This document shows positions 25 through 50,576 of a stretch of DNA of 64,000 bases, piece by piece; position 1 is the stretch's first letter, and every line of letters begins with the position of its first letter. A program made the position numbers and the translations under genes. This stretch comes from Acidovorax sp. (GTDB lineage: Bacteria; Pseudomonadota; Gammaproteobacteria; Burkholderiales; Burkholderiaceae_C), in the NCBI RefSeq assembly GCF_046294525.1, contig NZ_JBKBKQ010000001.1, positions 231,263-295,262 on the forward strand. The letters are read 5' to 3'. The notes under the pieces were generated by a model, which worked only from the letters and a program-made list of their open reading frames with translations, made no database searches and was not told the origin of the DNA.

Positions 25-675
25 TCAGGCGGCGGGGCGAATGGGCAGGCCCACCAGTTGCTCCAGCTCAGCGTGCGACAGGCCGGGCACGGTGTCGATG
101 AGCTGCAGCCCGGTGGGTGTGCAGGCCAGTGTGCACAGATCGGTGTAGATGCGCTTCACGCAGGCGACACCGGTGAGCGGGTAGGTGCATTGCGTGACGA
201 TCTTGCTGGCACCCTGCTTGGTCAGCAGGTCCATCATCACCCAGGTCTGCTTGGCGCCGATGGCCAGGTCCATGGCCCCGCCCACGGCGGGGATGGCGCC
301 GGGCTCGCCCGTGCTCCAGTTGGCCAGGTCGCCCGTGGCGCTGACCTGGAAGGCGCCCAGCACACAGATGTCGAGGTGCCCGCCGCGCATCATCGCGAAG
401 CTGTCGGCGTGGTGAAAGTACGCGCCGCCGGGCAGCAGCGTGACGGGCTGCTTGCCCGCGTTGATCAGGTCATAGTCCTCCAGCCCCGCAGCGGGCGCCG
501 GGCCCATGCCCAGGATGCCGTTTTCGCTTTGCAGGATGACCTCGCGGCCTGCCGGGATGTGATTGGCCACCAGGGTCGGCTGACCGATGCCCAGGTTGAC
601 GTAGGCGCCGTCGTGGATGTCTTGCGCCACGCGCTTCGCCAGTTCTTCTTTACTACGCTTTTGATAGCTGCTCAC
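25..675 (-). CDS. pcaJ: 3-oxoadipate CoA-transferase (succinyl-CoA:3-ketoacid CoA transferase) subunit B
   Basis: 216-aa ORF with glutaconate/3-oxoacid CoA-transferase beta-subunit-like sequence (SENG...MGP, ...GGAMDL), immediately downstream of the subunit A gene. Confidence 0.8.
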   Translation of the reverse strand: MSSYQKRSKEELAKRVAQDIHDGAYVNLGIGQPTLVANHIPAGREVILQSENGILGMGPAPAAGLEDYDLINAGKQPVTLLPGGAYFHHADSFAMMRGGHLDICVLGAFQVSATGDLANWSTGEPGAIPAVGGAMDLAIGAKQTWVMMDLLTKQGASKIVTQCTYPLTGVACVKRIYTDLCTLACTPTGLQLIDTVPGLSHAELEQLVGLPIRPAA

Positions 676-704
676 GCTTACTCCTCAGGCGGCAGGTGCC
701 AATT

Positions 705-1406
705 TCATGCTGATTTTTTGAATCCACCCGCCTGGGTCGCAGTGCGCGCGATCTGAACCACATGGCTCACGTAGATGCCGGGGGTGACGATGGCTTCGGG
801 GTCCAGCGCGCCCAGCTCCACCACCTCGTGCACGGTGGCAACCGTGGTCTTGGCAGCCGTGGCCATCACGGGGCCAAAGTTGCGCGCCGACATGCGGTAG
901 GTGAGGTTGCCCCAGCGGTCGCCCTTCTCGGCCTTGATCAGGGCCACGTCGCCGTGGATGGGGTACTCGAGCACGTAGTGTTTGCCGTTGATCTCGCGCG
1001 TCTCCTTGCCCGCAGCCAGTTCAGTGCCATAGGCGGTGGCGCAGAAGAAGGCGCCGATGCCCGCACCCGCAGCGCGCAGACGCTCGGCCAGGTTGCCCTG
1101 GGGCACGAGTTCGAGCTCCAGCTTGCCGCTGCGGTACAGGACGTCGAACACGTAGCTATCCACTTGGCGCGGAAAGCTGCAGATGATCTTGCGCACCTGG
1201 CCCGCCTTGAGCAACGCGGCCAGGCCCTGGTCGGCGTTGCCTGCGTTGTTGTTGACCACCGTTAGGTCACGCGCCCCCTGGGCGATGAGGCCATCGATCA
1301 GCTCGCCCGGAATGCCGGCGGTGCCGAACCCGCCTATCAACACCGTGGCACCATCCTTCACCCCCGCAAGGGCCTGGGCCACCGAGTCCGCCAGTTTGTT
1401 GATCAT
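705..1406 (-). CDS. pcaI: 3-oxoadipate CoA-transferase subunit A
   Basis: 233-aa ORF with a CoA-transferase alpha-subunit N-terminus (GGFGTAGIPGELI, LTVVNNNAG); it overlaps or abuts pcaJ. Confidence 0.8.
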   Translation of the reverse strand: MINKLADSVAQALAGVKDGATVLIGGFGTAGIPGELIDGLIAQGARDLTVVNNNAGNADQGLAALLKAGQVRKIICSFPRQVDSYVFDVLYRSGKLELELVPQGNLAERLRAAGAGIGAFFCATAYGTELAAGKETREINGKHYVLEYPIHGDVALIKAEKGDRWGNLTYRMSARNFGPVMATAAKTTVATVHEVVELGALDPEAIVTPGIYVSHVVQIARTATQAGGFKKSA

Positions 1407-8077: not shown

Positions 8078-8319
8078 GACAGTTCTCCCAAACAACCGGG
8101 CAGCAGCAAACACAAGAAGGGGAATCAACAAATACACGGGGTGTGCAAAGAAGACCCGGCTGGCTCCTCGTCTTTGCGCCACGCCACTGTAGGGTTGCCG
8201 CCGTTGCGCCCGCGTAGGACGCCGCCGCAGCCCTGCGTAGCGGGCACGCCTGAGAGATGCATTCCCCCCCCAACCCCACGCGCACATCGGCCAGGGGCTG
8301 CGTGCTACGCTCTCGCCCC

Positions 8320-8754
8320 ATGTTCAGCCCCTCCCAAGCCGACGTGCGCCGCTTTCTGTGCGGCGTGCATGCCAAAACCCGAGACGGCGCCCCCATGGAA
8401 GCCATCGAAACCCTGGCCAGCCTGTGGATCGCCGAGCATCCCGAATACCACGCCGACCTGTCCGACGCCGACGCGGCGGTAGCCCGCAACTACGACCAAA
8501 CGCCGGGCCAGACCAACCCCTTCCTGCACCTGTCCATGCACCTCTCGATCAGCGAGCAGTGCAGCATTGACCAGCCCCGCGGCATCCGCCAGGCGGTGGA
8601 GCTGCTGACCGCGCGGCTCGACTCATTGCACGATGCGCACCATGCCGCCATGGACTGCCTGGGGGAGATGCTGTGGGAGAGCCAGCGCGCGGGCCGCCCA
8701 CCGGACGGCGACGCGTACATTGCGTGCGTGCAGCGGCGCGCCACGCAGGACTAA
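8320..8754 (+). CDS. DUF1841-like conserved hypothetical protein
   Basis: 144 aa from MFSPSQ..., with NPFLHLSMHLSISEQ resembling the DUF1841 signature; a terminator follows. Confidence 0.45.
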   Translation: MFSPSQADVRRFLCGVHAKTRDGAPMEAIETLASLWIAEHPEYHADLSDADAAVARNYDQTPGQTNPFLHLSMHLSISEQCSIDQPRGIRQAVELLTARLDSLHDAHHAAMDCLGEMLWESQRAGRPPDGDAYIACVQRRATQD

Positions 8755-8860: not shown

Positions 8861-8896
8861 AAAACAAAAAGCCCGCAAGACGCGGGCTTTGTTGTT
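8861..8896. terminator. bidirectional rho-independent terminator
   Basis: AAAGCCCGC-aaga-GCGGGCTTT hairpin with a T-run on both strands, lying between the convergent DUF1841 and cytochrome c4 genes. Confidence 0.5.
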
Positions 8897-8915: not shown

Positions 8916-9578
8916 TCAGCGGAAGCGCGATTGCGGCGTGACGTGCAGGTCGCCCTCGATGCTGCCCAGGTAGTTAGACAGCGCCTTCAGCTCGGCGTTG
9001 GTGAACTGCTTGGCCACGCCGGCCATGATGGCGTTGCTGCGACCCATGGTGTTGTTCTTTTCCACCTTGTACGACTTGAGGGCCACGAACAGGTAGTCCG
9101 CGTGCTGGCCTGCGATCTTGGGATAGGACGGGTCGATGGGCTTGGCAAAGTTCTCGCCGTGGCAGGACACGCAGGCGCCCTTTTGCAGCAAGGCGGCCAC
9201 TTGCACGCTGGGCTCGCGCTTGGGTTTGGCGGCCAGCTCGGTGCTGGTCTTGCCGTGTTGTTCATAGTAGGCGGAGACGTCTGCGATGTCTTGTTCAGAC
9301 AGCGTCTCGGCGATGCCACGCATGGTGGGGTGCTTGCGCTCGCCCTTCTGGTAGGCGGTCAGTGCGGCGGCGATGTACTTGGCGCTCTGGCCCGAGATCA
9401 TGGGCACCTTGTGCACTTCCGGAAAGCTGGCCTGGTAGCCCGGGATGCCGTGGCAGCCAATGCACATGGCGATCTTTTGCTTGCCGGCTTCCACGTCGCC
9501 CTTGGCTTCCTGGGCATGGGAGATAGCGGTCACGGAAGCGACAGCCAGGGCGAATAGCGTGGTCAGCGTTTTGTTCAT
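8916..9578 (-). CDS. diheme cytochrome c4
   Basis: 220 aa with a signal peptide and two CxxCH haem-binding motifs (CIGCHG, CVSCHG). Confidence 0.8.
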   Translation of the reverse strand: MNKTLTTLFALAVASVTAISHAQEAKGDVEAGKQKIAMCIGCHGIPGYQASFPEVHKVPMISGQSAKYIAAALTAYQKGERKHPTMRGIAETLSEQDIADVSAYYEQHGKTSTELAAKPKREPSVQVAALLQKGACVSCHGENFAKPIDPSYPKIAGQHADYLFVALKSYKVEKNNTMGRSNAIMAGVAKQFTNAELKALSNYLGSIEGDLHVTPQSRFR

Positions 9579-10555: not shown

Positions 10556-11158
10556 ATGAGTTTCGTGGAACCGCTGGTCATGCGCCACAACGGGGTGCGG
10601 CTCGAACCTCTGGCGCTGTCGCATGAGGACGGGCTGCGCGCAGCCGCCGCTGATGGCGAGCTGTGGACGCTGCGCATCACATCCGTACCCGAGCCCGAAA
10701 ACACCCGCAAGTACATCGAGGACGCGCTGCGCATGCGCGCCGATGGCAACCGCTTTGCGTTTGCCGTGGTGGATGAGGCCACCAGCACCGTGCTGGGCAC
10801 CACGAGCTACCACGACATCCTGCCCGCCGTGAAGCGCGTGGAGATCGGCTACACCTGGTACCGCCAGAGCGTGCAGCGCACGCACGTCAACACCACCGCA
10901 AAGCTCTTGATGATGGGCCACGCGTTCGACACGCTGGGCTGCCACGTGGTGGGCTGGCGCACCGACAATTTCAATTTCGCGTCGCAACGCGCCATCGAGC
11001 GCCTGGGCGCCCAAAAGGACGGCGTGATCCGCGGCCACGCGCTGCGCCGCGACGGCACGATCCGCGACACGGTGATGTACAGCATGCGCGCTGGCGAGTG
11101 GCCCGAGGCCAAAGCGCAGCTGCTATATCTTTTAGAGCGCCGAGCGCACGCCCAATAA
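10556..11158 (+). CDS. GNAT-family N-acetyltransferase
   Basis: 200 aa with an acetyltransferase fold signature (VEIGYTWY, GCHVVGWRTDNFNFASQRAIERLG). Confidence 0.7.
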   Translation: MSFVEPLVMRHNGVRLEPLALSHEDGLRAAAADGELWTLRITSVPEPENTRKYIEDALRMRADGNRFAFAVVDEATSTVLGTTSYHDILPAVKRVEIGYTWYRQSVQRTHVNTTAKLLMMGHAFDTLGCHVVGWRTDNFNFASQRAIERLGAQKDGVIRGHALRRDGTIRDTVMYSMRAGEWPEAKAQLLYLLERRAHAQ

Positions 11159-11176
11159 GCGCTGGAGGCCAAAAAC

Positions 11177-12364
11177 ATGCTGATCGACTTCTTCTACACC
11201 CTGCGTTCGGCCAAGCTGCCTGTGTCCGTGAAGGAATATCTCACGCTGCTCGAAGCGCTGCAGGCCGGCGTGGTGGGCCCGAAGTCGGATGACGCATGGA
11301 GCCTGGACGATTTTTACAGCCTCTCTCGCCTGACCTTGGTGAAGGACGAGAAGCACTACGACAAGTTCGATCGGGCCTTCGGCGCCTACTTCAAGGGCGT
11401 GGAGATGGTGGCCGATTTCACCAAGGAGATCCCGGCCGACTGGCTGCGCAAGATTCTGGAGAACGAACTCACGCCCGAGCAGAAGGCCGCCATCGAGAAG
11501 ATGGGCTGGGACGAGCTGATGGAGACGCTCAAGAAGCGCCTGGAAGAGCAGAAAGAGCGCCACGAGGGCGGCAACAAGTGGATCGGCACCGGCGGCACCA
11601 GCCCATTCGGCCACGGCGGCTACAACCCGCAGGGCGTGCGCATTGGCGGCGCGGGCAAGAACAAGAGCGCGGTGAAGGTGTGGGAGCAGCGCGCCTACAA
11701 GGACTACGACGACCAGCAAGAGCTGGGCACGCGCAACATCAAGGTGGCGCTGCGCCGCCTGCGCAAGTTTGCGCGCGAAGGGCATGAGCTGGAGCTGGAC
11801 CTGCCCGACACCATCCGCAGCACTGCCGCCAACGCGGGCTACCTGGACATCAAGATGGTGCCCGAGCGGCACAACAACGTGAAGGTGCTGCTGCTAATGG
11901 ACGTGGGCGGCACCATGGACGAACACATCCAGCGCGTGGAAGAACTCTTTTCCGCGGTGAAGAACGAGTTCAAGCACCTGGAGTTTTATTACTTCCACAA
12001 CTGCGTGTACGACTTCATGTGGAAGAACAACCGCCGCCGCTTTGCCGAGAAGTTCCCGACCTGGGACATCATCCGCAAGTACAACAAGGACTACAAGCTG
12101 ATCTTCGTGGGCGACGCGACCATGAGCCCGTACGAAATCCTGCAGCCCGGCGGCAGCGTGGAATACAACAACGAGGAGCCGGGTGCCGAATGGATCCAGC
12201 GCCTCACACATGCCTTCCCCAAGCACGCCTGGATCAACCCCGAGCCCCAGGGCGTATGGCAGTACCGCCAGAGCATCAGCATCATCCAGCAGCTGCTGGG
12301 CAACCGCATGTACCCGCTGTCGCTCAAGGGGCTGGAAGAGACCATGCGGCTGCTGTCCAAGTAG
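11177..12364 (+). CDS. VWA-domain protein, CoxE-like partner of MoxR ATPase
   Basis: 395 aa with an N-terminal MLIDFFYTLRSAKLPVSVKEYLTLLEAL typical of the VWA_CoxE family, and a C-terminal VWA-like region. Confidence 0.7.
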   Translation: MLIDFFYTLRSAKLPVSVKEYLTLLEALQAGVVGPKSDDAWSLDDFYSLSRLTLVKDEKHYDKFDRAFGAYFKGVEMVADFTKEIPADWLRKILENELTPEQKAAIEKMGWDELMETLKKRLEEQKERHEGGNKWIGTGGTSPFGHGGYNPQGVRIGGAGKNKSAVKVWEQRAYKDYDDQQELGTRNIKVALRRLRKFAREGHELELDLPDTIRSTAANAGYLDIKMVPERHNNVKVLLLMDVGGTMDEHIQRVEELFSAVKNEFKHLEFYYFHNCVYDFMWKNNRRRFAEKFPTWDIIRKYNKDYKLIFVGDATMSPYEILQPGGSVEYNNEEPGAEWIQRLTHAFPKHAWINPEPQGVWQYRQSISIIQQLLGNRMYPLSLKGLEETMRLLSK

Positions 12365-18913: not shown

Positions 18914-18988
18914 CTCCTCGTAGTTCAATGGATAGAACGAGTGCCTCCTAAGCGCTAGATACAGGTTCGATTCCTGTCGAGGGGACCA
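18914..18988 (+). tRNA. tRNA-Arg (anticodon CCT)
   Basis: 75-nt cloverleaf folded by hand: acceptor CTCCTCG/CGAGGGG, D-arm GTTC-AATGGATA-GAAC, anticodon arm AGTGC-CTCCTAA-GCGCT, T-arm ACAGG-TTCGATT-CCTGT, discriminator A, encoded CCA. Confidence 0.8.
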
Positions 18989-18997
18989 GATTTATGG

Positions 18998-19057
18998 TCA
19001 AAATGGCCTCTAGCGCTTATTGGATAAGCGCTAGCAGCTATCAAAACAGTAGTATCC
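18998..19057 (+). repeat. copy B of ~55-60 bp palindromic repeat family (CTAGCGCTTAT-TGG-ATAAGCGCTAG perfect palindrome)
   Basis: Lies immediately 3' of tRNA-Arg and upstream of hsdM; aligns with the copies at 8787, 26281, 44668 and 50490. Confidence 0.6.
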
Positions 19058-19149
19058 AAAGAAGAAGCAACCCCGTGGCAGGGTCTTCGCAGTGTGTGCG
19101 GCGGGCCTGCCCGCTTGACGGCCCCTTGCAGGCCACACACCGCAGCCAC

Positions 19150-20775
19150 ATGCTCCAAGACATCCAGAAAACCCTGTGGGCCACCGCCGACAAGCTGCGT
19201 GCCAACATGGACGCCGCCGAATACAAGCACCTGGTGCTCGGCCTCATCTTCGTCAAATACATCTCTGACACCTTTGCCGCCCACCACGCCACGCTGGTGC
19301 TGCGCCTGGCAGACCCCAACGACGAATACTTCTACGGTGACGCCGACCCCGCCGACATAGCCGCCGAGCTGGAAGACCGTGACTACTACAAGGAAGCCAA
19401 CGTCTTCTGGGTGCCCGAAGCCGCCCGGTGGGAGCAACTGCGCAGCAGCGCCAAGCAGCCCGACATTGGCAAACGCATTGACGACGCGCTGACGCTGATC
19501 GAGGCCGAGAACCCCACGCTCAAAGGCATCCTGGACAAACGCTACGCCCGTGCACAGCTGCCCGACGGCAAACTGGGCGAGCTGGTCGATTTGGTGTCAA
19601 CCATCGGCTTTGGCGACACCCCCGACGTGGCCCGCGACACCCTGGGCCAGGTGTACGAATACTTTCTGGGCATGTTCGCCAGCGCCGAAGGCAAACGCGG
19701 CGGGCAGTTCTACACGCCCGCCAGCATCGTCAAAACCCTGGTGGCCGTGCTCAACCCGCACACCGGCAAGGTGTACGACCCGTGCTGCGGCAGCGGCGGC
19801 ATGTTTGTGCAGAGTGAGAAGTTCATTGAGGCACACGGCGGCAAGAAGGGCGACGTCTCCATCTACGGGCAAGAGAGCAACCCCACCACCTGGCGCCTGG
19901 CCGCCATGAACCTGGCCATTCGCGGCATCGACTTCAACCTGGGCCGCGAACCCGCCGACACCTTTGTGCGCAACCAGCACCCCGACTTGCGCGCCGACTT
20001 CATCCTGGCCAACCCGCCCTTCAACATCAGCGACTGGTGGCACCCCAGTTTGGAGGGCGACGCCCGCTGGGTGTATGGCGACCCACCCCACGGTAACGCC
20101 AACACCGCCTGGCTGCAGCACATGCTGCACCACCTCAAAGCCACGGGCCGTGCGGGCATCGTGCTGGCCAACGGCAGCATGAGCAGCAGCCAGAACAACG
20201 AAGGCCAGATCCGCGCCGCCATGGTCGATGCCGACGTGGTGGAAGTGATGATCGCCCTGCCCGGCCAGCTGTTTTTCAACACGCAAATCCCGGCGTGCCT
20301 GTGGTTTTTGGCCAAAAGCAAGAAGCGCAAGGGCGAGGTGCTGTTCATCGACGCCCGCAAGCTCGCCACCCCTATCAGCCGCGTGCAGGGCGAGCTGACC
20401 GACGAAGTCATCGACCGCATCGCCGCCACTGTAGCCGCCTGGCGCGGCGAGCCCGCACCCACCGTCATCACGCCCTCGTCCTCGTCCACCCCAAACCCCG
20501 TTCGGGCTGAGCCCGTCGAAGCCCACCCCCACCCCACCCCCTACCAGGACATACCCGGCTTCTGCCGCAGCGTGCCCCTGGCCGAGATCGCCCAACACGG
20601 CCACGTACTCACCCCCGGCCGCTACGTGGGCGCCGAGGCGGTGGAGGACGACGACGAAGCCTTTGCCGACAAGATGGTGAAGCTGACGGAAAAGCTGGGT
20701 GAGCAGATGGCCAAGGGCGCGGAGCTGGATGCGGTGATTCGGCAGAAGTTGGGGGGGTTGGGGTATGAGTTCTGA
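19150..20775 (+). CDS. hsdM: Type I restriction-modification N6-adenine DNA methyltransferase subunit HsdM
   Basis: HsdM N-terminal domain ([32 protein letters not shown]), SAM-binding motif (DPCCGSGGM) and catalytic NPPF (LANPPFN). Confidence 0.9.
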
Positions 20776-22015
20776 GTGGCCTCAAGTCTCACTTCGAGAG
20801 TTTGCAGATCTACTCGCTGGGTTCGCATTTAAAAGCAGCGGCTACACAGACGACTCCTCGGATGTTCGACTCCTTCGAGGAGACAACATCGCACCCGGCC
20901 AAGTCCGGTGGGATGGTGTAAAGCGGTGGCCCAAAGCTCCGGCTCTCACACTGTCGAGATATCGCTTGGAACCCGGCGATGTCGTGCTCGCTATGGATCG
21001 ACCGTGGATACCCGCTGGTTTGAAGGTTGCGCAGGTTACCGAAACCGACACGCCTAGCTACTTGGTACAGCGCGTTGCTCGCCTTCGTACAACTTCACGA
21101 GAGGATCGCAGCTTTCTATTTGCGCTCTTATCAACGACAGATTTTGAGTCGTACATCCAGAACGCGACTACTGGAACAGCCGTTCCTCACATCAGCGCCA
21201 AGCAAATACTCGACTACAAATTTAATCTTCCACCAGCGACTGTACGAACTGGAATCGGCGCTCTCGCAGCTGCACTTAACGACCGCATCACCCTCCTGCG
21301 CGAAACCAACGCCACGCTCGAAGCCATTGCCCAGGCGCTGTTCAAGTCGTGGTTTGTCGATTTCGACCCCGTGCGCGCCAAGATGGAAGGCCGTGCCCCC
21401 GAAGGCATGGACGAAGCCACCGCCGCGCTGTTTCCCGATGCGCTGGAGGAGTCGGAGTTGGGGGAGGTGCCGAGGGGGTGGCTACCCGTTCGACTGAACT
21501 CGTTTTTGGAGCTTGCTTACGGGAAGGCACTCAAAGCAGAAAACCGCAACCCCGGTCCAGTGCCTGTGTATGGGTCTGGCGGAATTACGGGGTGGCACGA
21601 CACGCCGCTGATTGATAGCCCGTCGATCATCGTCGGCCGTAAGGGCACAGTTGGAAGCCTCTACTGGGAGAGCCGCCCGTTCTACCCAATCGATACGGTC
21701 TTTTACGTGAAGTCCAAGTGTCCGTTGACGTATTGCCACCAGCTTTTGAAGACTGTGGGTTTGCATGACATGAATACCGATGCAGCGGTCCCTGGGTTGA
21801 ACAGAGAAAACGTCTATCGCTTGCTGGTTCCAGATGCCCCTGCAAACGTTCTCGCAGCGTTCGATGCGTCGGCCAACGCATTGAGAAACAGCATCGACCA
21901 AAACGAAGCCCAAGCCCAAACCCTCTCCACCCTCCGCGACACCCTGCTCCCCCACCTGATCTCGGGCCAGTTGCGCTTGCCCGAGTCGCAGGCCGCTATG
22001 AAGGACGCGTTATGA
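20765..22015 (+). CDS. hsdS: Type I R-M specificity subunit HsdS
   Basis: 416 aa with two target-recognition domains separated by conserved repeats; both TRD regions are visibly lower in GC; overlaps the hsdM stop. Confidence 0.85.
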
Positions 22016-22713
22016 CCGAACGCATCCACATCTATTGCGACGAGTCGTGCCATCTGGAAAACGACCACATGCGTGCGATGGTGCTGGGCGCCGTGTGGTG
22101 CTCGGCGTCGCATCGGCAGTCGCTGGCAGACAAGATCAAACGCTTGAAAGCAGACTACGGTTTGCCAGCTCAGTTTGAAATCAAGTGGGTGAAGGTGTCA
22201 CCCGGAAAATTGCCGTTCTACCAAGCGTTGCTGGACTTGTTTTTCGACGAACCCTTGCTGCATTTCCGAGGATTGGTGGTGCCAGATAAGGGGGCCTTGG
22301 ATCATGGCCGTTTTTCCCAAAGCCATGACGATTTCTATTACAAGCAGTGGTACACGCTACTCAATCGACTGATCGACCCGAGCAACCGATACCGCATTTT
22401 TCTGGACATCAAGGACACACGCGGCCAAGCCAAGGTGCGCAAGCTGCACGATGTGCTGTGCAACGCCAACTATGACTTCGACCGCAATGTGATCGAGTCG
22501 ATCGAACTGGTGCATTCGCACGATGTGCTGCTACTCCAACTGGCAGACCTGCTGATTGGTGCGCTGGCGTATGTGCACCGGGGTTTGCACGGCAGCCCGG
22601 CCAAGCTGGCGCTGGTGGCGCATCTACGGCACCGCTCGGGCTTGCGGCTGGAACAAAGCTCACTGCTGCGGGCAGACAAGTTCAATCTGTTCATCTGGAG
22701 GCCGCAGTCTTGA
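22012..22713 (+). CDS. DUF3800-like protein embedded in Type I R-M locus
   Basis: 233-aa ORF beginning [15 protein letters not shown]... (the IYxDES motif is typical of DUF3800); GC is lower than its surroundings; ATGA start/stop overlap with hsdS. Confidence 0.55.
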   Translation: MTERIHIYCDESCHLENDHMRAMVLGAVWCSASHRQSLADKIKRLKADYGLPAQFEIKWVKVSPGKLPFYQALLDLFFDEPLLHFRGLVVPDKGALDHGRFSQSHDDFYYKQWYTLLNRLIDPSNRYRIFLDIKDTRGQAKVRKLHDVLCNANYDFDRNVIESIELVHSHDVLLLQLADLLIGALAYVHRGLHGSPAKLALVAHLRHRSGLRLEQSSLLRADKFNLFIWRPQS

Positions 22714-22715
22714 GC

Positions 22716-23216
22716 ATGCCGCCACCTTTGATGCCATTCAGTGGGGATGACGACTGGGCCGACTATGAAGATGCCATTTACGAGGTGTACTTGCAGACGG
22801 TTGCACATGCTCAGCTCACGTTCATGGGTGCCCCGGTCAAAGTGCGCTTTATGCCGACCACCAAACACAAAGGCTACGGGTTTTGGCACTTGATCTCTGA
22901 AGCACCCGACCAGGACAACCGGAATGAAGATGACCGCGTACCTGACCTGCGCCGATGCGAGCGGGTGCGCTGGGTGGCATGGTGCATTCAGAATGCAGGC
23001 AAGACGGGGTTTTCGTGGTGGGAAAACGACCGCAAAGGTCAAACCCATGTGGTCATATGGGCCGAGGAGCACGACTATGCGGTGATGCTGGGCAAGCGAA
23101 ACACGCCAGAAGGAGTTCGCTTTTATTTGCTCAAGACCGCCTACTGCCTGCGGTCACACAACGTACGCCGCTTTGCCAAGGAACGCGATGCGTATTGGGC
23201 AAGCCAGAAAGACTGA
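22716..23216 (+). CDS. hypothetical protein (166 aa) co-transcribed with DUF3800-like gene
   Basis: Its ATG lies 3 nt after the DUF3800 stop; moderately low GC; no recognisable motif. Confidence 0.4.
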   Translation: MPPPLMPFSGDDDWADYEDAIYEVYLQTVAHAQLTFMGAPVKVRFMPTTKHKGYGFWHLISEAPDQDNRNEDDRVPDLRRCERVRWVAWCIQNAGKTGFSWWENDRKGQTHVVIWAEEHDYAVMLGKRNTPEGVRFYLLKTAYCLRSHNVRRFAKERDAYWASQKD

Positions 23217-23391
23217 AGCCCCGGCACACGGATGTGCAAGGGCTTCGGATACTCCTTCTACACGTGGTAGATGAGCTGGGCTGATTGTAGCGGTGCAAGC
23301 AAATCAAGGCATTCCGAATGTTGTATTACCCACAAAAAGCGAAAAGCATACTGGCGGCGCGGGGCCGCTGCTGGGGAGTTGCCTGTGGGGC

Positions 23392-23453
23392 TCCGAACAT
23401 TCGCAGCTGAGGTCCGAACATTTACAGCTCAGCTCCGAACATTCGCAGATACC
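23392..23453. repeat. 3 tandem ~21-bp direct repeats (TCCGAACATTCGCAGCTGAGG-like)
   Basis: Read directly in the AT-richer intergenic region upstream of fic. Confidence 0.6.
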
Positions 23454-23620
23454 AAAAGCCGCGCGATGCCGAGAATCTCCGGCCACTTGCGCTTGTCCGA
23501 GGCGCAGGCGCTAATCAACGCGGTTTGAAACTGAACAGCTATGAAAGTGGTCTTTCACAGCGGCCCGACCTTTAAAGAGTTCTTTCACAGCTTGCCGGAC
23601 GACAAGCTGGGCGTCGCTGA

Positions 23621-23651
23621 CATGTATAGAAATCCGCGTTTTCTATACATG
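23621..23651. promoter_or_regulatory. perfect 12-bp inverted repeat CATGTATAGAAA-N7-TTTCTATACATG (candidate operator upstream of fic)
   Basis: Read directly; a second AAATCCG(C/T)GTTTT motif repeats ~25 bp downstream. Confidence 0.4.
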
Positions 23652-23764
23652 TCGCAGTCCACATGCTTAAAAATCCGTGTTTTTTGTACAGATGCTGGCT
23701 AACATGGTGAAGCCATTGCGTTTTTTCGCCATGTTTCCCCCTCCCCCACTCTGGATGCACCGGC

Positions 23765-24841
23765 ATGCCTTTTGACCGCAGCCAACCCCACAACGACCTG
23801 CCCCTGCTGCCGCCCGCAGTAGAGCTGGAGAGCAAGGCTGTGCTCAAGCAGGCGATTGCGGCCAACCGGGTGCTGGCCAACCTGCGCGGGCTGGCGGCGC
23901 AGATTCCGAACCAGGGCGTGCTGATCAACAGCATCGTGCTGCAGGAAGCGCGCTTGTCGTCGGAAATTGAAAACATCGTCACCACCAACGACGAGCTGTA
24001 TCGCGCCGACGCGGACGCTGACGGCAAGGCCGATGCCCATACCAAGGAGGTGTTGCGCTACCGCGAGGCGCTCTACCACGGCTTTGCCGCGCTGAAAGAC
24101 CGCCCTTTGAGCACCAATCTGTTCATAGAGATAGCCCAGCGCATCAAGCAGATGGATTTGCAGGTGCGCGCCGTGCCCGGCACGGCTTTGAAGAATGAGC
24201 GGGGCGAGGTGGTGTACACGCCGCCTGTGGGCGATGCGGTGATTCGCGACAAGCTGTCCAACCTTGAAAAGTTCATCCACGCCGATGACGACCTCGACCC
24301 GCTGGTAAAGATGGCGGTCATGCACTACCAGTTCGAGGCGATTCACCCGTTCCCGGATGGCAACGGCCGCACGGGGCGCATCCTGAACCTGCTGTTTCTG
24401 GTGGAAAAGGGCTTGCTGGACATTCCGGTGATGTTCCTGTCGCGCTACATCATTGCCCACCGTGCGGCCTACTACGAGGGTTTGCGCCGGGTGACGGAAG
24501 AGCAGGACTGGGAGAACTGGCTGCTTTACATGCTGCGTGCGGTGGAAAGCACGGCTCAGCAGACGTTTGATCAGGTCAACCGCATCCGTGACTTGATGGA
24601 GCAGGTGCGCGAGCGTGTGCAGCGCGAAGCGCCTGGCGTGTACAGCAAAGACCTGATCGAGGTGATCTTCAAGCAGCCCTATACAAAAATCCAGTTCGTG
24701 GTGGACGCTGGCATTGCCAAACGGCAAACCGCGTCCGGTTACCTGCAAACCCTGGCGGGCCTGGGCGTGCTGCGCGAAAGCAAGCACGGGCGCGAGAAGT
24801 ACTACATCAACGACGCCTTGTTGGCAGAGCTGGTGGGTTGA
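23765..24841 (+). CDS. fic: Fic/Doc-family protein (AMPylation-type Fic)
   Basis: Canonical Fic motif HPFPDGNGRTGR, sitting between hsdS and hsdR, which is a well-known association. Confidence 0.85.
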   Translation: MPFDRSQPHNDLPLLPPAVELESKAVLKQAIAANRVLANLRGLAAQIPNQGVLINSIVLQEARLSSEIENIVTTNDELYRADADADGKADAHTKEVLRYREALYHGFAALKDRPLSTNLFIEIAQRIKQMDLQVRAVPGTALKNERGEVVYTPPVGDAVIRDKLSNLEKFIHADDDLDPLVKMAVMHYQFEAIHPFPDGNGRTGRILNLLFLVEKGLLDIPVMFLSRYIIAHRAAYYEGLRRVTEEQDWENWLLYMLRAVESTAQQTFDQVNRIRDLMEQVRERVQREAPGVYSKDLIEVIFKQPYTKIQFVVDAGIAKRQTASGYLQTLAGLGVLRESKHGREKYYINDALLAELVG

Positions 24842-24921
24842 CCATATGGTGATGGCATCGACAGATCACGATAACTTGTCGATTTTCTTTGTTTTTTTAA
24901 ACATATTCTCCCCATCTGTCG

Positions 24922-27900
24922 ATGGCATCGACACATCCGCCACCTCTCAGCCCCGGACCTGACCGCATGACCGAAGACCAGCTCGAACGCGAAACCCTGG
25001 CCTGGCTGCAGGACGTGGGCTACACCCACATCGCCGGTCCCGACATCGCCCCCGACGGCCCCGCGCCCGAGCGCAGCGACTACCGCCAGGTGCTGCTGGC
25101 AGGCCGCCTGAAGGCAGCGCTGATGCGGCTGAACCCTGCCGTGCCCGTGGTGGCCATCGACGACGCGCTGGCGCAGGTGCAAGACCTGGGCGTGCCCGCG
25201 CTGCTGGCGGCCAACCGACGGTTTCACCGGCTGCTGGTGGCGGGCGTGCCGGTGCAGTACCAGCGCGGCAACGAGACAGTGGGCGACTTCGTGCGCCTGG
25301 TGGACTGGGCTGCGCCCGAGCGCAATGAGTGGCTGGCGGTGAACCAGTTCAGCGTGCGCGGGCCGCGCCACACGCGCCGGCCCGACGTGGTGCTGTTTGT
25401 GAACGGCCTGCCGCTGGTGCTGCTGGAGTTAAAAAACCCCGCCGACCAGGCCGCCAGTGTGTGGAAGGCGTACGACCAGATCCAGACGTACAAAGAGCAG
25501 ATCCCGGACCTGTTTAACACCAACGAGGTGCTGGTGATTTCAGACGGCACCGAGGCACTGCTGGGGTCGCTGAGCGCAAGCGCCGAGCGCTTCATGGCGT
25601 GGCGCACGATTGACGGCGTGGCGCTGGACCCGCTGGGCCAGTTCAACGAGCTGCAGACACTGGTGCGCGGCGTGCTGGCGCCGCAATACCTGCTGGACTA
25701 CCTGCGCTACTTTGTGCTGTTTGAGGACGATGGGCAGCTGGTCAAAAAGATCGCGGGCTACCACCAGTTTCATGCGGTACGCGCCGCCATTGCGCAGGTG
25801 GTGGCTGCTGCCACGCCGGGCAGCGGCGCAGACCCGGCCATCAAGGGCAAGGGCGGCGTGGTGTGGCACACGCAGGGCAGCGGCAAGAGCATCACCATGA
25901 CCTGCTTTGCCGCCCGCGTGATGCAGGAGCCCGCGCTGCAGAACCCCACCATCGTGGTCATCACCGACCGCAACGACCTGGACGGCCAGCTGCTGGGCGT
26001 GTTTGGCCTGGCGCAAGACCTGCTGCGCGAGCAGCCCGTGCAGGCCCGCACCCGGCAAGAGCTGCGCACGCTGCTGGCCAACCGCCCCTCGGGCGGCATT
26101 GTGTTTGCCACCATCCAGAAGTTCATGCCCAGCGAGGACGAAGACAGCTACCCCATGCTGTCGGACCGCCACAACATCGTGGTGATTGCCGACGAGGCGC
26201 ACCGCACGCAGTACGGGTTTGAGGCGCGACTGAAGGTGCGCAAGGCTGATGTGAAGGCCGATGGGAAGGAAGATTTCAAGCCAAATCAGGCTATAGCGCT
26301 TGATACACAAGCGTCACCAGCTACAAATAATGTAGCAAACCCCATCGCCACAGGCAGCGGCACCGCCCCCGCACACCGCGCCGAATTTGCGCCGCCCACC
26401 TACCGGGCAGGCACCGAAGCGAACACAGTGGAACACGCCCGCGAGCATTACCAGGTGGGCTACGCCCAGCACCTGCGCGATGCTCTGCCCAACGCCACCT
26501 TTGTGGCGTTTACCGGCACCCCGGTGAGCGGCACCGACCGCGACACGCGCGCCGTGTTTGGCGACTACATCCACGTGTATGACATGCAGCAGGCCAAGGA
26601 AGACGGCGCCACCGTGGCCATCTACTACGAAAGCCGCATGGTGAAGCTGGGCCTGAAGGCCGACGAGCTGCCCAGCATTGACGCCGAGGTGGACGAGCTG
26701 GCCGAGGACGAAGAAGAAAGCGTGCAGTCGCGCCTGAAAAGCCGCTGGGCGGCGCTGGAGCAGGTGGTGGGCGCCGAGCCCCGCGTGGCGCGCGTGGCGC
26801 AGGACCTGGTGGCGCATTTTGAAGAGCGCAACACCGCCCAGCTCGGCAAGGCCATGGTGGTGGCCATGAGCCGCGACATCTGCGCGCACCTGTACAACGA
26901 GATCGTGCGCCTGCGCCCCGACTGGCACAACGCCGACCCCGAGCTGGGCGCCATCAAGATCGTGATGACCGGCAGCGCCAGCGACAAAGCGCTGCTGCGC
27001 CCGCACATCTACAGCGCGCAGGTGAAAAAGCGGCTGGAAAAGCGCTTCAAAGACCCGGCCGACCCGCTGCGCATCGTGATCGTGCGCGACATGTGGCTGA
27101 CCGGCTTTGACGCGCCCTGCGTACACACCCTGTATGTAGACAAGCCCATGAAGGGCCATAACCTGATGCAGGCCATTGCCCGCGTGAACCGCGTGTTCAA
27201 GGACAAGCAGGGTGGCCTGGTGGTGGACTACATCGGCATTGGCAACGAGCTGAAAGCCGCCATGAAGGAATACACCGCCGCCCAAGGCCGGGGCCGCCCC
27301 ACGGTGGACGCGCACGAGGCCTTCAGCGTGGTGCTGGAAAAGCTGGATGTGCTGCGCGCCCTGCTGCACGGGTTTGACTACAGCGGCTTTCTGACGGGCG
27401 GCCACCGCGTGCTGGCGGGTGCTGCCAACCACGTGCTGGGCCTGCCGCGCCAGGCCGGGCAAGACGGCAAAAAACGGTTTGCCGACACTGCCCTGGCGAT
27501 GAGCCAGGCCTTTACCCTGAGCTGCACACTGGACGAGGCGAAGGGCGTGCGCGAGGAAGTGGCCTTCATGCAAGGCGTCAAGGTCATCCTGACCAAGCGC
27601 GACATCACCGCCAAGCAACGCACCGACGAGCAGCGCGAGCTGGCAGTGCGCCAGATCATCAGCCATGCAGTGGTGTCTGAAAGTGTGGTGGACATCTTTG
27701 ACGCCGTGGGGTTGGAGAAGCCCAACATCGGCCTGCTGGACGAAGGCTTTCTGGCCCAGGTGCGGGCGCTGCCCGAACGCAACCTGGCGGTGGAGTTGCT
27801 GGAGCGACTGCTGGAGGGCGAGATCAAGAGCCGCTTTGCCAGCAACGTGGTGCAAAGCAAAAAGTTCTCGGAGCTGCTGGGCGGCGTGATCGTGCGCTAC

Positions 27901-28296
27901 CAGAACCGCAGCATTGAAACCGCCCAGGTGATGGAAGAACTGCTGGACATGGCCCGCCAATTCCGCGAGGCACATGGTCTGGCCGACAAGCTGGGGCTGA
28001 GCGAAGACGAGGTGCGCTTTTACACCGCGCTGGCCGAGAACGAATCTGCCGTACGCACGCTGAGCGACGACACGCTGAAAAAAATCGCCCACGAACTGAC
28101 CGACAACCTGCGCAAAAACCTGACGGTGGACTGGACCGAGCGCGAGAGCGTGCAAGCCAAGCTGCGCCTGATGGTCAAACGCATCTTGCGCAAGTACAAA
28201 TACCCGCCGGACCTGGAAGCTGCAGCGGTGGAGCTTGTGCTGCAACAAGCGCAGGCATTGGGTGAAGAGTGGAGCGAGCTGGCTGCAGCGGTCTGA
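24922..28296 (+). CDS. hsdR: Type I R-M endonuclease/helicase subunit HsdR
   Basis: SF2 helicase motifs (GSGKS, DEAHRTQ, FTGTP); the start may be the second Met at 24967; it contains an unusually long low-GC insertion between DEAH and the FTGTP motif. Confidence 0.9.
26281..26340 (+). repeat. degenerate in-frame copy C of the ~55-60 bp palindromic repeat inside hsdR
   Basis: CAAATCAGGCTATAGCGCTTGATACACAAGCGTCACCAGCTACAAATAATGTAGC aligns with copy B; there is a local GC dip. Confidence 0.45.
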
Positions 28297-33064: not shown

Positions 33065-33175
33065 GCAAAAACCATAGCATCTGGCGCTTGGTGCACAAGG
33101 GCTTCAGATGTTTTTCATTTGAAACCCAATGAAATCAAGCGCCAAAAGCTCTCATTTTCATAGCACAACACAGCC

Positions 33176-42305: not shown

Positions 42306-42818
42306 ATGACCGCACCCACCGCACTCGACCGCTTCGACCTCGCCATCCTGGACATCCTGCAGGCCGACAACACCACGCCCCAGCGCGTGATCGCCCAGGC
42401 CGTGAACCTCTCGGCCCCGGCCGTGCAGCGGCGCATTCAGCGGCTGCAAAGCACCGGCGTGATCCGCGCCAACGTGGCCGTGCTGGACCCGGAGAAGGTC
42501 GGCAAGCCGCTGACCATCATCGTGGAGGTGCACCTGGAGAACGAGCGCCCCGACCGCACCGCCCCGCTGCGCGCACGCATCGCTGCCGAAGAGGCCGTGC
42601 AGCAGTGCTACTACGTGACGGGCGAGGCGGACTACCTGCTGGTGGTGACGGTGGCCTCCATGGCCGACTACGAGGCGCTGACGCGGCGGCTGTTTGATGG
42701 GGATGACAACGTGCGGCGGTTTCGCACGTCGGTGGCGCTGGGGTGCTTGAAGGCGGGGCTGAGGGTGCCGCTGGGAACGGCGCCCGCGTCACCCGTAGGT
42801 CGGGTTAGCGAAGCGTAA
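42306..42818 (+). CDS. Lrp/AsnC-family transcriptional regulator
   Basis: HTH_AsnC N-terminus (RFDLAILDILQADNTTPQRVIAQAVNLSAPAVQRRIQRLQSTGVI) plus a RAM domain; the last ~9 codons and the stop are supplied by a REP element. Confidence 0.8.
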   Translation: MTAPTALDRFDLAILDILQADNTTPQRVIAQAVNLSAPAVQRRIQRLQSTGVIRANVAVLDPEKVGKPLTIIVEVHLENERPDRTAPLRARIAAEEAVQQCYYVTGEADYLLVVTVASMADYEALTRRLFDGDDNVRRFRTSVALGCLKAGLRVPLGTAPASPVGRVSEA

Positions 42819-42824
42819 CCCGAC
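42795..42824. repeat. REP element (GTAGGTCGGGTTAGCGAAGCGTAACCCGAC hairpin) upstream of RAYT
   Basis: Inverted-repeat hairpin of the same family as the four copies downstream of the RAYT gene. Confidence 0.7.
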
Positions 42825-42850
42825 ACCCTCTTCAGAAGCCCGCCCGACCC

Positions 42851-43369
42851 ATGCAATACCGCCGCGCCTTCACCCCGGGCGCCACTTTGTTCTTCACCGT
42901 CGTCACCCACGACCGCCGCCCCCTCTTGCAAAGCGAGGACGCCGTGGAAACGCTGCGCGCCGCTTTCCGCAGGGTGCGCTCGGCGCGACCCTTCGTGATC
43001 GACGCCATGGTGGTGCTGCCGGACCATGTGCATTGCATCTGGACACTGCCGCCAGACGACGCGGATTTTGCGACCCGGTGGCGGCTGATCAAGACTTGGT
43101 TCACCAAGCACGGCCCTGCGAACCAGCGAGGCCCGCAGAATGCCGCCCGCGCCGCCAAGCAGGAGCAAGCCGTTTGGCAACACCGCTACTGCGAGCATCG
43201 AATCCGGGACGAAGAGGACTACGCCCGGCATGTGGACTACATCCACTACAACCCGGTCAAGCACGGGTGGGCGAAATCTGCGGGGGGCATGGCCGTATTC
43301 GAGTTTTGGGCGGTATGTGGCGGCGGGGATTTATCCGCCCGATTGGGGGCACTCCGCGCCAGATCTTGA
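42851..43369 (+). CDS. REP-associated tyrosine transposase (RAYT, IS200/IS605 TnpA-like)
   Basis: 172 aa with an HUH motif (HVHCIW), a catalytic Tyr region (HYNPVKHGW) and an N-terminus (YRRAFTPGATLFFT) typical of IS200-like Y1 transposases; flanked by REPs. Confidence 0.8.
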   Translation: MQYRRAFTPGATLFFTVVTHDRRPLLQSEDAVETLRAAFRRVRSARPFVIDAMVVLPDHVHCIWTLPPDDADFATRWRLIKTWFTKHGPANQRGPQNAARAAKQEQAVWQHRYCEHRIRDEEDYARHVDYIHYNPVKHGWAKSAGGMAVFEFWAVCGGGDLSARLGALRARS

Positions 43370-43371
43370 AG

Positions 43372-43552
43372 GGGTAGGTCGGGAGTGAGCGGTGGCGTGC
43401 GTCGGGTTACGCCCTTCGGGCTAACCCGACCTACGGTCGAGTACCCGCGTCCTGGGCCTCTTGGCCGCGTCGGGTTACGCTGCGCTAACCCGACCTACGG
43501 GAGCGAACGGGCCCCATGGTAGGTCGGGTTAGCCCGAAGGGCGTAACCCGAC
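43372..43552. repeat. cluster of 3-4 REP hairpins (GTCGGGTTACGC...TAACCCGACCTAC) downstream of RAYT
   Basis: Copies at about 43372-43390 (partial), 43402-43435, 43469-43498 and 43518-43552, in alternating orientation. Confidence 0.75.
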
Positions 43553-44667: not shown

Positions 44668-44725
44668 CAAGCCATTTCGGCATCTAGCGCTTATCTATCA
44701 AGCGCCAGGAGCTATTGTTTCAGGA
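44668..44725 (+). repeat. copy D of ~55-60 bp palindromic repeat family
   Basis: CATCTAGCGCTTATCTATCAAGCGCCAGGAGCTATTGTTTC; it overlaps the stop codon of the histidine kinase gene. Confidence 0.5.
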
Positions 44726-46080: not shown

Positions 46081-46183
46081 GGTCGTGCCTGCCCAAAGTG
46101 TGCCGCTCACCTCTGGGCCTCCAAGACTGGCGCTGCCAAGCCCAGTGCCCCCGCGCAAGGGCCTCCCCGCCGCGCTGGGGGCG

Positions 46184-46222
46184 TCCCCCTCTCGCATTGC
46201 GCAGCAATGCGAGAGAGGGGGA
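46184..46222. promoter_or_regulatory. long imperfect palindrome (TCCCCCTCTCGCATTGC-gca-GCAATGCGAGAGAGGGGGA) in the RR-HK intergenic gap
   Basis: Read directly; a ~17-bp stem, lying in the 178-bp gap between the co-oriented regulator and kinase genes. Confidence 0.3.
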
Positions 46223-49450: not shown

Positions 49451-49558
49451 GGCAAGGTCCTTTGCAGAGAGGAATGGTTGATGGGTATGGACTTTATTGA
49501 TTGCCAAAGGACCGATAAATCACCAAAATTCAGATTCATTGTCCAGATTAAACAAACA

Positions 49559-50509
49559 ATGAACCCCCTCCTCGACCAGATGCAAACTTTTGCCCGCGTG
49601 GCGGAGCTGGCCAGCTTTACCCAGGCCGCGCAGGTGCTGGGCATTCCCAAGGCCACCGCGTCGCTGGCGGTGCAGCAGCTGGAGGCGCAGCTGGGCACGC
49701 GCCTGCTGCACCGCACAACGCGGCGCGTGCAGCTCACGCAGGACGGCCAGGCGTATTACGAGCGCTGCAAGGACCTGCTGGACGATGTGGACGAGCTGCA
49801 AGCCCTGTTCCAGCAGCCGGGCGGGGCGGCCCTGCGCGGGCGGGTCCGCATCGACATGTCCACTGGCATTGCGCGGCAGCTGGTGCTGCCGCGCCTTCCG
49901 GAGCTGATGGACCGCCACCCGCTGCTGGAGGTGGAGCTGAGCAGCACCGACCGCCGCGTGGACCTGGTGCGCGAGGGCTTTGACTGCGTGATCCGTGTAG
50001 GCCCCGTGGCCGAGCCCAGCCTGGTGGCGCGCCCGCTGGGCAATGTGCGCGTGGCCACCTGCGCCAGCCCAGGCTACCTGGCGCGCAAGGGCTGGCCCCA
50101 CACGCTGGTCGACCTGGCGCAGCACGACCTGGTGCACTACGTGAGCACGCTGGGCACGCGCTCGGCGGGGTTTGAAACACTGGATTCCAACGGCGAGACC
50201 CGCTTCCACACCATGGCGGGCCGCATCACGGTGAACAGCGCCGAGGCCTACCTGGGCGCCTGCGCTGCCGGGCTGGGGCTGATCCAGGCGCCGCTGCTGG
50301 GCGTGCGCGAACTGATTGACCGTGGCCTGCTGGTGGAGGTGATGCCTGAGCACCCCGCCCCGCCCATGCCGGTGACTCTGCTGTACGCCCATCGGCGCCA
50401 CCTGTCGCAGCGTGTGCGGGTGGTGATGGACTGGCTGGCGGAGGTGGTGCAGGCGCACCTGCGCAGCGAAGCAGAGACTGCGGACGCCCAAAAACTATCA
50501 AAAAAATAG
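49559..50509 (+). CDS. LysR-family transcriptional regulator
   Basis: N-terminal HTH (MQTFARVAELASFTQAAQVLGIPKATASLAVQQLE) plus a LysR substrate-binding domain; divergent from the SDR gene. Confidence 0.85.
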   Translation: MNPLLDQMQTFARVAELASFTQAAQVLGIPKATASLAVQQLEAQLGTRLLHRTTRRVQLTQDGQAYYERCKDLLDDVDELQALFQQPGGAALRGRVRIDMSTGIARQLVLPRLPELMDRHPLLEVELSSTDRRVDLVREGFDCVIRVGPVAEPSLVARPLGNVRVATCASPGYLARKGWPHTLVDLAQHDLVHYVSTLGTRSAGFETLDSNGETRFHTMAGRITVNSAEAYLGACAAGLGLIQAPLLGVRELIDRGLLVEVMPEHPAPPMPVTLLYAHRRHLSQRVRVVMDWLAEVVQAHLRSEAETADAQKLSKK

Positions 50510-50552
50510 CTGCCAGCGCTTGCTGGATAAGCGCTAGAAGCCAAAAACACTT
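50490..50552 (-). repeat. copy E of ~55-60 bp palindromic repeat family
   Basis: Its reverse complement, TTTTTGGCTTCTAGCGCTTATCCAGCAAGCGCTGGCAGCTATTTTTTT, aligns with copy B; it overlaps the LysR stop codon and last codons. Confidence 0.5.
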
Positions 50553-50576
50553 CAAACCCTGTGAATTGACGGATAG

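Follow-up and report, generated by a model that had tools for sequence, protein, structure and literature searches.

A 64,000-nt stretch of an Acidovorax sp. contig (NZ_JBKBKQ010000001.1, positions 231,263 to 295,262; "the window" below means this whole stretch) carries a short AT-rich palindromic sequence beside a tRNA gene, at 18998-19057, which recurs elsewhere in the window and raises the question of what it is and why it is retained. Our analysis indicates that it very probably belongs to a family of ~69-bp dispersed palindromic repeats of the Comamonadaceae, of the same general kind as the repetitive extragenic palindromes and bacterial interspersed mosaic elements (REP/BIME), the ERIC sequences and the Correia elements. 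The best explanation overall, to which we assign a probability of roughly 0.5, is that it represents an old, fixed REP/ERIC-like repeat that would be kept as a protein-binding and bending site in duplex DNA.

The element is an AT-rich island of about 69 bp (69-70), with ~40% GC in a window of 66% GC. Column statistics over 172 copies, using both information content and AT content, give sharp borders at model columns 21-92, within which the AT content is 60-85% against a background of 35%. The full consensus is AAATTTTGAGTCAAATTGGCCTCTAGCGCTTATccAtcAAGCGCTAGCAGCTATcAAaTtaatAGCAAT. Its usual core reads CTAGCGCTT-N7-AAGCGCTAG, followed 4 nt 3′ of the stem by an invariant AGCT, and hardly any variation is seen in four blocks, AGCGCTT, AAGCGC, AGCTAT and a distal AG. 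The same blocks are near-invariant among 50 copies that do not match the pattern used for scanning and were thus not chosen by motif, where the GCGC arms are kept in at least 94% and AGCT in 48-50 of 50. Column 44 holds C in 142 of the 172 copies and G in 16, so that CTAG, and not GTAG, is usual there. CTAG is strongly depleted across the window (15 seen vs ~199 expected by base composition), and 5 of these 15 sites lie inside elements, although elements make up <1% of the window.

A preliminary description of the window had given five copies (A to E, itemized further below) of a 55-60-bp element and had named in advance, as its refutation, a motif no more frequent genome-wide than chance predicts together with a likeness that failed to extend beyond the palindrome. 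All five copies were recovered: they form the top direct-repeat family in a repeat search of the window, are also linked there as inverted pairs, and score 42.7-74.1 bits (E 2e-11 to 4e-21) with nhmmer. In a MAFFT alignment of seven window copies the likeness reaches far past the palindrome, and in the 172-copy statistics it holds over ~69 nt, which is also the measured length of the unit. Other details had to be revised. The core first proposed, CTAGCGCTTAT-N5-ATAAGCGCTAG, has 0 matches even at 3 mismatches, since the loop of copy B is 3 nt; perfect 11-bp arms, presented as a family trait, occur in copy B alone, the other window copies having arms of 9 bp or shorter and a 7-nt loop. A relaxed core, AGCGCTT-N7-AAGCGCT, recovers all window copies. 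The tally of five was also too low, as the repeat search adds partners at 651-705 and 11130-11171 (copies F and G) and a weak pair was found near 33.1 kb.

A scan pattern with 21 specified bases, AGCGCTTATNNNNNAAGCGCNNNNAGCTAT, was run against one genome per species (596 Gb) and found at least 115 stretches, where ~0.3 would be expected by chance according to our own arithmetic. All listed matches are of Comamonadaceae type, namely Acidovorax, Giesbergeria, Comamonas, Simplicispira, Diaphorobacter, Ottowia, Paracidovorax, Paenacidovorax, Albidiferax and unnamed metagenome-assembled genomes (MAGs). Iterated nhmmer on the window and the fetched loci (951 kb) yielded 194 non-overlapping copies; 172 of these score at least 35 bits, and they come from at least 58 genomes of Comamonadaceae. 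The window holds 5 strong and 3-4 weak copies per 64 kb, loci fetched by the pattern carry about one extra copy per 13 kb after removal of the seeded copy, and loci fetched by protein homology contain 5 strong copies in 110 kb. This density probably extrapolates to one copy per 10-20 kb, or a few hundred per genome, a figure that is extrapolated rather than counted. Matches to the consensus also turn up on one E. coli plasmid and on megaplasmids from Diaphorobacter, Acidovorax and Comamonas. In an annotated Diaphorobacter record, the copy lies between cobN and a TonB-dependent receptor gene and carries no annotation. Among viral sequences in IMG/VR, the exact motif occurs on 30 contigs, in which a hidden Markov model finds 42 copies, some of these on contigs with 49-58% GC; on contigs L150 and L146 the copies lie between genes for an integrase, Ant anti-repressors and a dNMP kinase.

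Where the element sits relative to genes was assessed with crude, GC3-based (third-codon-position GC) gene calls, using the 60-400 bp spacers of the same loci as background. Element contexts were 44 convergent, 61 tandem and 4 divergent, vs 56, 161 and 51 in the background (chi-square ~33, 2 d.f., our own calculation from the counts). In tandem contexts the orientation relative to transcription is unbiased, with 28 copies in the same and 33 in the opposite direction. The median distance to flanking stop codons is 10-20 nt, and the spacers are largely filled by the element. Elements favour gene 3′ ends in either orientation and shun divergent promoter spacers, as anticipated when the sequence was first described as a dispersed REP-like palindromic repeat at gene 3′ ends. 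Local GC skew gave no signal of replication-strand bias, although the skew of these 8-kb pieces fails even to track gene orientation.

The two arms outside the palindrome follow a rule of their own. In the 5′ arm, columns 34-37 have the form AnTm in 152 of 168 copies, whereas column shuffles predict 93±4 (max 105), and there are 0 TpA steps vs 65 expected. Columns 77-80 of the 3′ arm show AnTm in 106 of 171 copies, compared with 71±4 under column shuffling, and 24 TpA steps instead of 75. The midpoints of the tracts lie 20 and 23 bp away from the dyad, or about two helical turns. Their A-run and T-run states are linked neither to each other nor to other columns and swap even between orthologous copies; given the lack of a link between the 5′ and 3′ states, an outer stem, or a flip of the whole element, was rejected. 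AnTm runs without TpA steps are classical bent, narrow-groove A-tract DNA. Because A-runs and U-runs are not equivalent in RNA and yet interchange here, this pattern argues for a constraint on double-stranded DNA.

An orientation-independent recognition site in duplex DNA for an abundant host protein would fit this pattern, and we place that claim a little short of even odds. Among the alternatives raised in the preliminary description, a binding site for a dimeric protein, itself putative, is the best fit, given a stem conserved as sequence and phased, interchangeable A-tracts. In such a model, the host protein would recognise the base sequence of the palindrome AGCGCTT-N7-AAGCGCT and of the AGCT tag, while the two A-tract arms would supply bends or narrow minor grooves and allow the DNA to wrap. 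E. coli REP/BIME elements bind gyrase and integration host factor (IHF), and by comparison the placement at the ends of transcription units could point to a topological or insulating role. Hairpins in single-stranded DNA or in transcripts probably form as well and may help to keep the arms complementary. To specify the putative protein further, as an abundant Comamonadaceae DNA-binding and bending protein that is nucleoid-associated, topoisomerase-linked or a transcription-unit insulator, is speculative, and we regard it as unlikely. If it were true, selection on the binding site would suffice to retain orthologous positions across genera and to impose AT-ending synonymous codons at overlapped gene ends, and temperate phages would exploit the site.

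The copies in the window, with gene identities taken from Pfam, are the following.

18990..19058, plus strand: copy B, the best copy (74 bits), CTAGCGCTTAT-TGG-ATAAGCGCTAG, with an 11-bp perfect stem and a 3-nt loop
8778..8852, minus strand: copy A, 69 bits
44655..44734, plus strand: copy D, 63 bits, oriented opposite to transcription
50482..50562, minus strand: copy E, 62 bits, the T-tract variant
26262..26346, plus strand: copy C, 43 bits, translated in frame inside hsdR (24922/24967-28296) and not intergenic
649..731, minus strand: copy F, degenerate, 29 bits, E 3e-7
11118..11180, minus strand: copy G, degenerate, 21 bits
33068-33127, minus strand: weak full copy, degenerate, 19.6 bits, membership uncertain
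33134-33167, plus strand: 3′ half copy in the same intergenic spacer as 33068-33127, 17 bits, membership uncertain

Copy B, whose sequence at 18998-19057 is AAAATGGCCTCTAGCGCTTATTGGATAAGCGCTAGCAGCTATCAAAAC, lies immediately 3′ of the sole tRNA gene of the window and upstream of hsdM, as first reported; the tRNA is tRNA-Arg(CCT), at 18914-18988. The first ATG of the hsdM open reading frame (18994) falls within the element, and the true start of hsdM is therefore probably further downstream. Copy A is situated between a convergent DUF1841 gene (8257-8754, plus strand) and a cytochrome c gene (8916-9578, minus strand), the latter having its own canonical terminator (8868-8890, minus strand) between gene and element. 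This terminator reads AAAGCCCGCG-TCT-TGCGGGCTTT followed by a T-run and is kept in the related loci L117 and L120. Copy D lies between two tandem minus-strand genes, for a histidine kinase (44698-46197) and panE (43564-44556), and copy E between the convergent genes for a LysR protein (49478-50509) and an aldose 1-epimerase (50577-51704); open reading frames and Pfam confirm that the histidine-kinase stop codon is overlapped by D and the LysR stop codon by E. Copy F spans the 30-nt scoA-scoB spacer and provides the scoA stop as well as the GTG start and first codons of scoB, and copy G takes in the stop and the ~13 preceding codons of a GNAT gene (10556-11158), plus the spacer before a VWA gene.

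Several of these sites are old. Overlapping orthologous loci among those fetched (75-93% flank identity) have the same site occupied in both genomes, in eleven different site pairs. In a motif-independent test, six syntenic loci were fetched through DUF1841 homologues. At site A, Simplicispira suum (L120) and L118 both carry the element, which is lost where other genes have been inserted; in the closest relatives, L116 and L117, gene insertions have rearranged the region and leave no clean empty-site boundaries. Site G is occupied in four genomes (the window, L117, L118 and S. suum, with 39 bits in the last), while site F is occupied in L117 and L118, partly so in Alicycliphilus (L119), and absent from Paracidovorax (L121). 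One more site is common to the Alicycliphilus and Simplicispira loci. For pairs with a partner chosen independently of the motif, identity is 86% (108/126) in core columns, vs 53% (140/264) in the remaining element columns. The overlap with coding sequence is also informative: the GNAT C-terminus QLLYLLERRAHAQ, up to and including its stop, is overlapped by the element at 11118-11160 and is encoded by a run of AT-ending codons. Its peptide QLLYLL uses CTA TAT CTT TTA-type codons with the element, as against CTC TAC CTG CTG in Alicycliphilus without it (L119 13855-13975). This codon contrast suggests a DNA-level constraint that may compete with codon bias.

Variable columns are as similar between genomes (identity 0.485) as within a genome (0.495, maximum 0.75), and among the copies compared there were no near-identical copies within a genome and no genome-specific variants. 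Matching flanking k-mers, as a target-site duplication would leave, were present in at most 2-3 of 122 copies at any offset pair, although decay with age is possible. Thus, there is no sign of recent transposition. The family probably spread long ago as a non-autonomous element, hence its occurrence on chromosomes, megaplasmids and temperate phages and as in-frame copies. It is now probably largely fixed, with a ~21-nt core (the AGCGCTT, AAGCGC, AGCTAT and distal AG blocks) held by purifying selection.

The element could instead act at the RNA level, as a stem-loop in 3′ untranslated regions and intercistronic spacers that shields mRNA from 3′ exonucleases or that attenuates or terminates transcription. 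Roles of this sort are established for certain E. coli REPs, ERIC sequences and Correia elements, and the location right after stop codons, the enrichment between convergent genes and the position between phage accessory genes, a usual place for terminators, would suit them. Nevertheless, we consider this account improbable. Termination, proposed for the hairpin in the preliminary description, does not hold up as a general role: a consensus terminator scan accepts only one of eight window copies, the terminator-like copy E, and rejects A, B, D, F and G; seven of the eight have no U-tract, the cytochrome c gene beside copy A has its own terminator, and copy F lies within the two-subunit scoA-scoB operon. 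Copies whose canonical strand is the one read by transcription have a 3′ T-tract marginally more often (9/28 vs 3/33, p=0.05), which favours an RNA role slightly.

Single copies fold to a stable central hairpin on either strand, in keeping with the secondary structure suggested earlier; RNAalifold on 43 copies returned no consensus structure. Under a three-hairpin model, 79.5% of cells are paired, compared with 25-49% in slid controls and 78.3% in shuffles; being barely above the shuffles, this pairing reflects conserved sequence with few compensatory changes. Among the 172 copies, covariation is confined to the stem-extension pairs 44-68 and 45-67 (p=0.0005 each), which speak for intramolecular pairing, and appears weakly in a 5′ mini-hairpin; the 5′ hairpin pairs in 53% of cells, and the 3′ hairpin GCTAT/ATAGC offers no testable covariation. 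The stem itself is conserved as sequence and does not covary, the AGCT outside it is invariant, and the arms interchange A-runs with T-runs while avoiding mixed states, although A-runs and U-runs would not be equivalent in RNA. The G·T vs A·C asymmetries indicate different strands in different helices, and this inconsistency, together with the unbiased orientation, led us to reject a strand-specific RNA. A structured RNA family was likewise set aside, since no Rfam covariance model matches in the window at the gathering threshold or at E<=10, no consensus fold emerges, pairing is close to shuffles and orientation is unbiased.

Alternatively, the element might be a selfish sequence that is still mobile, moved in trans by a single-strand-specific HUH/Y1 transposase (RAYT-, that is, REP-associated tyrosine transposase-, or IS200/IS605-like) that reads the hairpin and AGCT; conservation of the core would then reflect the requirements of a transposase rather than a host function. 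A hairpin with an invariant adjacent tetranucleotide does resemble REP and IS200/IS605 ends, the missing target-site duplications fit HUH chemistry, and the copies on temperate phages and plasmids, the in-frame insertions in genes and one orthologous site that holds another palindromic repeat can all be read this way. The window even contains a RAYT gene. However, the GTAG-tagged GTCGGGTTA REPs that flank this gene are a separate family, unrelated to the element as the preliminary description had stated, and GTAG tags only 16 of 172 element copies. In the inspected multi-copy loci (~1 Mb of loci, not whole genomes), no transposase-like gene is flanked by elements. Near-identical copies and genome-specific variants are lacking, occupied sites are common to several genera, and orientation shows no strand bias, the GC-skew test being itself uninformative. 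We therefore view continued mobility as doubtful. The same absence of target-site duplications, near-identical copies and genome-specific variants speaks against the classical MITE (a miniature inverted-repeat transposable element), which had also been proposed; in addition, the consensus arms are not mutually complementary and so provide no terminal inverted repeats, though no genome-wide search for a parent insertion sequence was made. As to the RAYT locus itself, the RAYT-like open reading frame (42851-43369) is flanked within 42792-43552 by GTAG-tagged REPs of the form CCCGTAGGTCGGGTTA..., which include a perfect 34-nt inverted pair (43401-43434 / 43519-43552).

Copies inside coding sequence bear on how the element arrives at a site. 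Copy C is translated between helicase motifs II and III of HsdR. At the equivalent position, HsdR of Giesbergeria, Polaromonas jejuensis and others has decayed or related peptides, whereas the whole ~70-residue segment is absent from Polaromonas JS666 and from the homologue P0079; the copy is an insertion relative to P0113 and P0079. In relatives, genuine intragenic copies, spanned by the Pfam domains of their genes, were found in the genes for an HI0933-like flavoprotein, for EarP (which has two), for an RlmI-like methyltransferase and for PBP1C. Two peptides of EarP, QIGLQRLSDKREQLSISYL and FIAYSAYPSSA, correspond to translated element sequence, and element peptides are present in all 120 EarP homologues (Comamonadaceae, down to 71% identity). 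Compared with Pseudomonas EarP, the net length change is only ~6-7 residues per site. No element-free earP site occurs among these 120 homologues, and locus L034 loses synteny. Overall, at most 12 of 174 candidates are intragenic, several of them artefacts. A molecular drive, similar to a DNA uptake signal or to biased gene conversion, in which the motif overwrites resident or coding sequence and is not inserted, is highly improbable: the overprinted GNAT C-terminus, scoB start, EarP and an LpxB-like patch, with little net length change and AT-ending codons, point that way, as does a core with flanking AT tracts that we take to be reminiscent of the extended Haemophilus uptake signal sequence, but one copy per 10-20 kb is 10-20 times sparser than known uptake sequences, a motif of 69 bp exceeds what point mutation could build, copies are not homogenised within genomes, and in HsdR the comparison with Polaromonas JS666 shows a true insertion.

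We return to the old, fixed repeat retained as a binding and bending site in duplex DNA, against which several points must be weighed. The site is a candidate and its binding protein putative. The GCGC blocks lie 15 bp apart, on different faces of the helix, which is unusual for a simple dimer binding one face. Covariation at 44-68 and 45-67 requires intrastrand pairing and would be left unexplained by duplex binding alone. The AAA/TTT dimorphism could stem from a mutational process, for instance template switching at quasi-palindromes, rather than from selection. Conservation of the core is partly conditioned on detection, as the partners in the 86%/53% comparison are themselves nhmmer hits. 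Turnover does occur, since in an orthologous spacer of two ~88% identical genomes a different GC-rich palindromic repeat replaces the element. Finally, the copy number is an extrapolation rather than a count, and many of the source genomes are MAGs.

Comparison with known systems places the element in familiar company. Like the REP/BIME of E. coli and Pseudomonas, it would comprise hundreds of intergenic palindromes that lie in either orientation at the 3′ ends of genes and are missing from promoter spacers, with a stem conserved as sequence and an adjacent conserved tetranucleotide; the roles proposed for REP/BIME are protein binding (gyrase, IHF) and mRNA stabilisation. Unlike them, it is 69 rather than 20-40 nt long, has AT-rich A-tract arms, is not clustered round a RAYT gene and shows site occupancy conserved between genera. 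Many copies are intergenic with a palindromic core, but the conserved unit spans ~69 nt and its arms are not palindromic; at the hairpin foot CTAG is usual in place of a GTAG/CGTC tag, the invariant tetranucleotide AGCT lying 4 nt 3′ of the stem, and the RAYT gene of the window carries GTAGGTCGGGTTA-type REPs instead of this element. Its tag and the lack of a flanking RAYT gene set it apart from RAYT-type REPs. ERIC (or IRU) sequences of enterobacteria are similar in being longer imperfect palindromes at transcribed intergenic sites, in either orientation, old, conserved in sequence, with no known transposase and a host range at family level. They differ in length (~127 bp), in their unrelated sequence and in host family, and A-tract arms are, to our knowledge, not a described feature of ERIC. 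The Correia (NEMIS) elements of Neisseria are also small palindromes close to genes, sometimes overlapping their ends, and contain an internal IHF binding and bending site, but they have clear terminal inverted repeats, a TA target duplication and strain polymorphism, none of which was seen here. In-frame translation within otherwise intact, functional genes (HsdR; EarP and the HI0933-like flavoprotein in relatives) recalls the Rickettsia palindromic elements (RPEs). Those are 100-150 bp, Rickettsia-specific and often intragenic; the likeness is one of behaviour and not of family membership.

The only published repeat that we found for this bacterial group is BRE, a beta-proteobacterial repeat, present also in Comamonadaceae, that is mostly intergenic and sometimes in coding sequences; it is ~90 bp long with 69% GC, forms tandem arrays and is present in no more than 29 copies in a genome (Hot et al. 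2011, PMC3110155). The present element, at ~69 bp and ~40% GC, singly dispersed and far more numerous, is set apart from BRE by that published description, and identity of the two was rejected on this comparison. Literature searches by taxon, element type and sequence fragments returned no description of the element, which thus appears to be an undescribed family of an already familiar REP/ERIC-type kind.

Small dispersed palindromic repeats are a major and poorly understood part of bacterial genomes, and few families are clearly assigned either to selfish DNA or to cis-elements of the host. The present family is unusually well suited to that question: its orthologous copies in different genera allow a constrained core to be told from saturated positions, the A-tract rule favours a constraint at the DNA over the RNA level, and copies that overlap coding sequence show the constraint of the element vying with codon bias. 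In practical terms, the element accounts for odd AT-rich islands and CTAG sites, and for start or stop codons wrongly called at the ends of genes, in annotations of Acidovorax, Comamonas and Giesbergeria, and it could serve as a family-specific marker.

Some further observations concern individual loci. The HsdR stretch between motifs II and III (window 26200-26450) is a hot spot for translated insertions and holds another conserved piece; the homologue P0094 has a further insertion there that looks like another translated repeat. Two lpxB matches (L074 3054-3116 and L087 7788-7851) fit the 21-base motif, and 13 of 22 codons there end in A or T by our own count. As both align without gaps to native E. 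coli LpxB, they were rejected as insertions, taken as look-alikes (by chance or convergence) or as sequence overwritten by the element, and excluded from later statistics; a GpsA match (L039) is similarly doubtful. At the spacer compared between L053 (4880-5040) and L063 (5936-6005), one holds the element and the other the GC-rich repeat GCTGAGCCTGTCGAAGC...GCTTCGACAGGCTCAGC, so that palindromic repeats of different kinds seem to settle in this one spacer. The E. coli plasmid match is a partial copy, 81% identical, under a DUF1010 gene on the conjugative plasmid NZ_MZ513635.1 (54341-54392), which may be DNA of Comamonadaceae origin. On related temperate-phage contigs (L150 9553-10168, L133 9855-9907 and L151 1615-1668), the element lies within a longer repeated unit, with the common flanks GGTGGTGCCGCTGGGGTAAAAACTGCC...TTGTTTTGTGTTGCCCTGCGTTGGCC, near integrase and Ant genes. 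In the window, a type I restriction-modification cluster (18914-28296, with hsdM from ~19 kb and hsdR at 24922-28296) follows directly downstream of tRNA-Arg(CCT), and with copy B at the junction this arrangement looks like an island at a tRNA gene.

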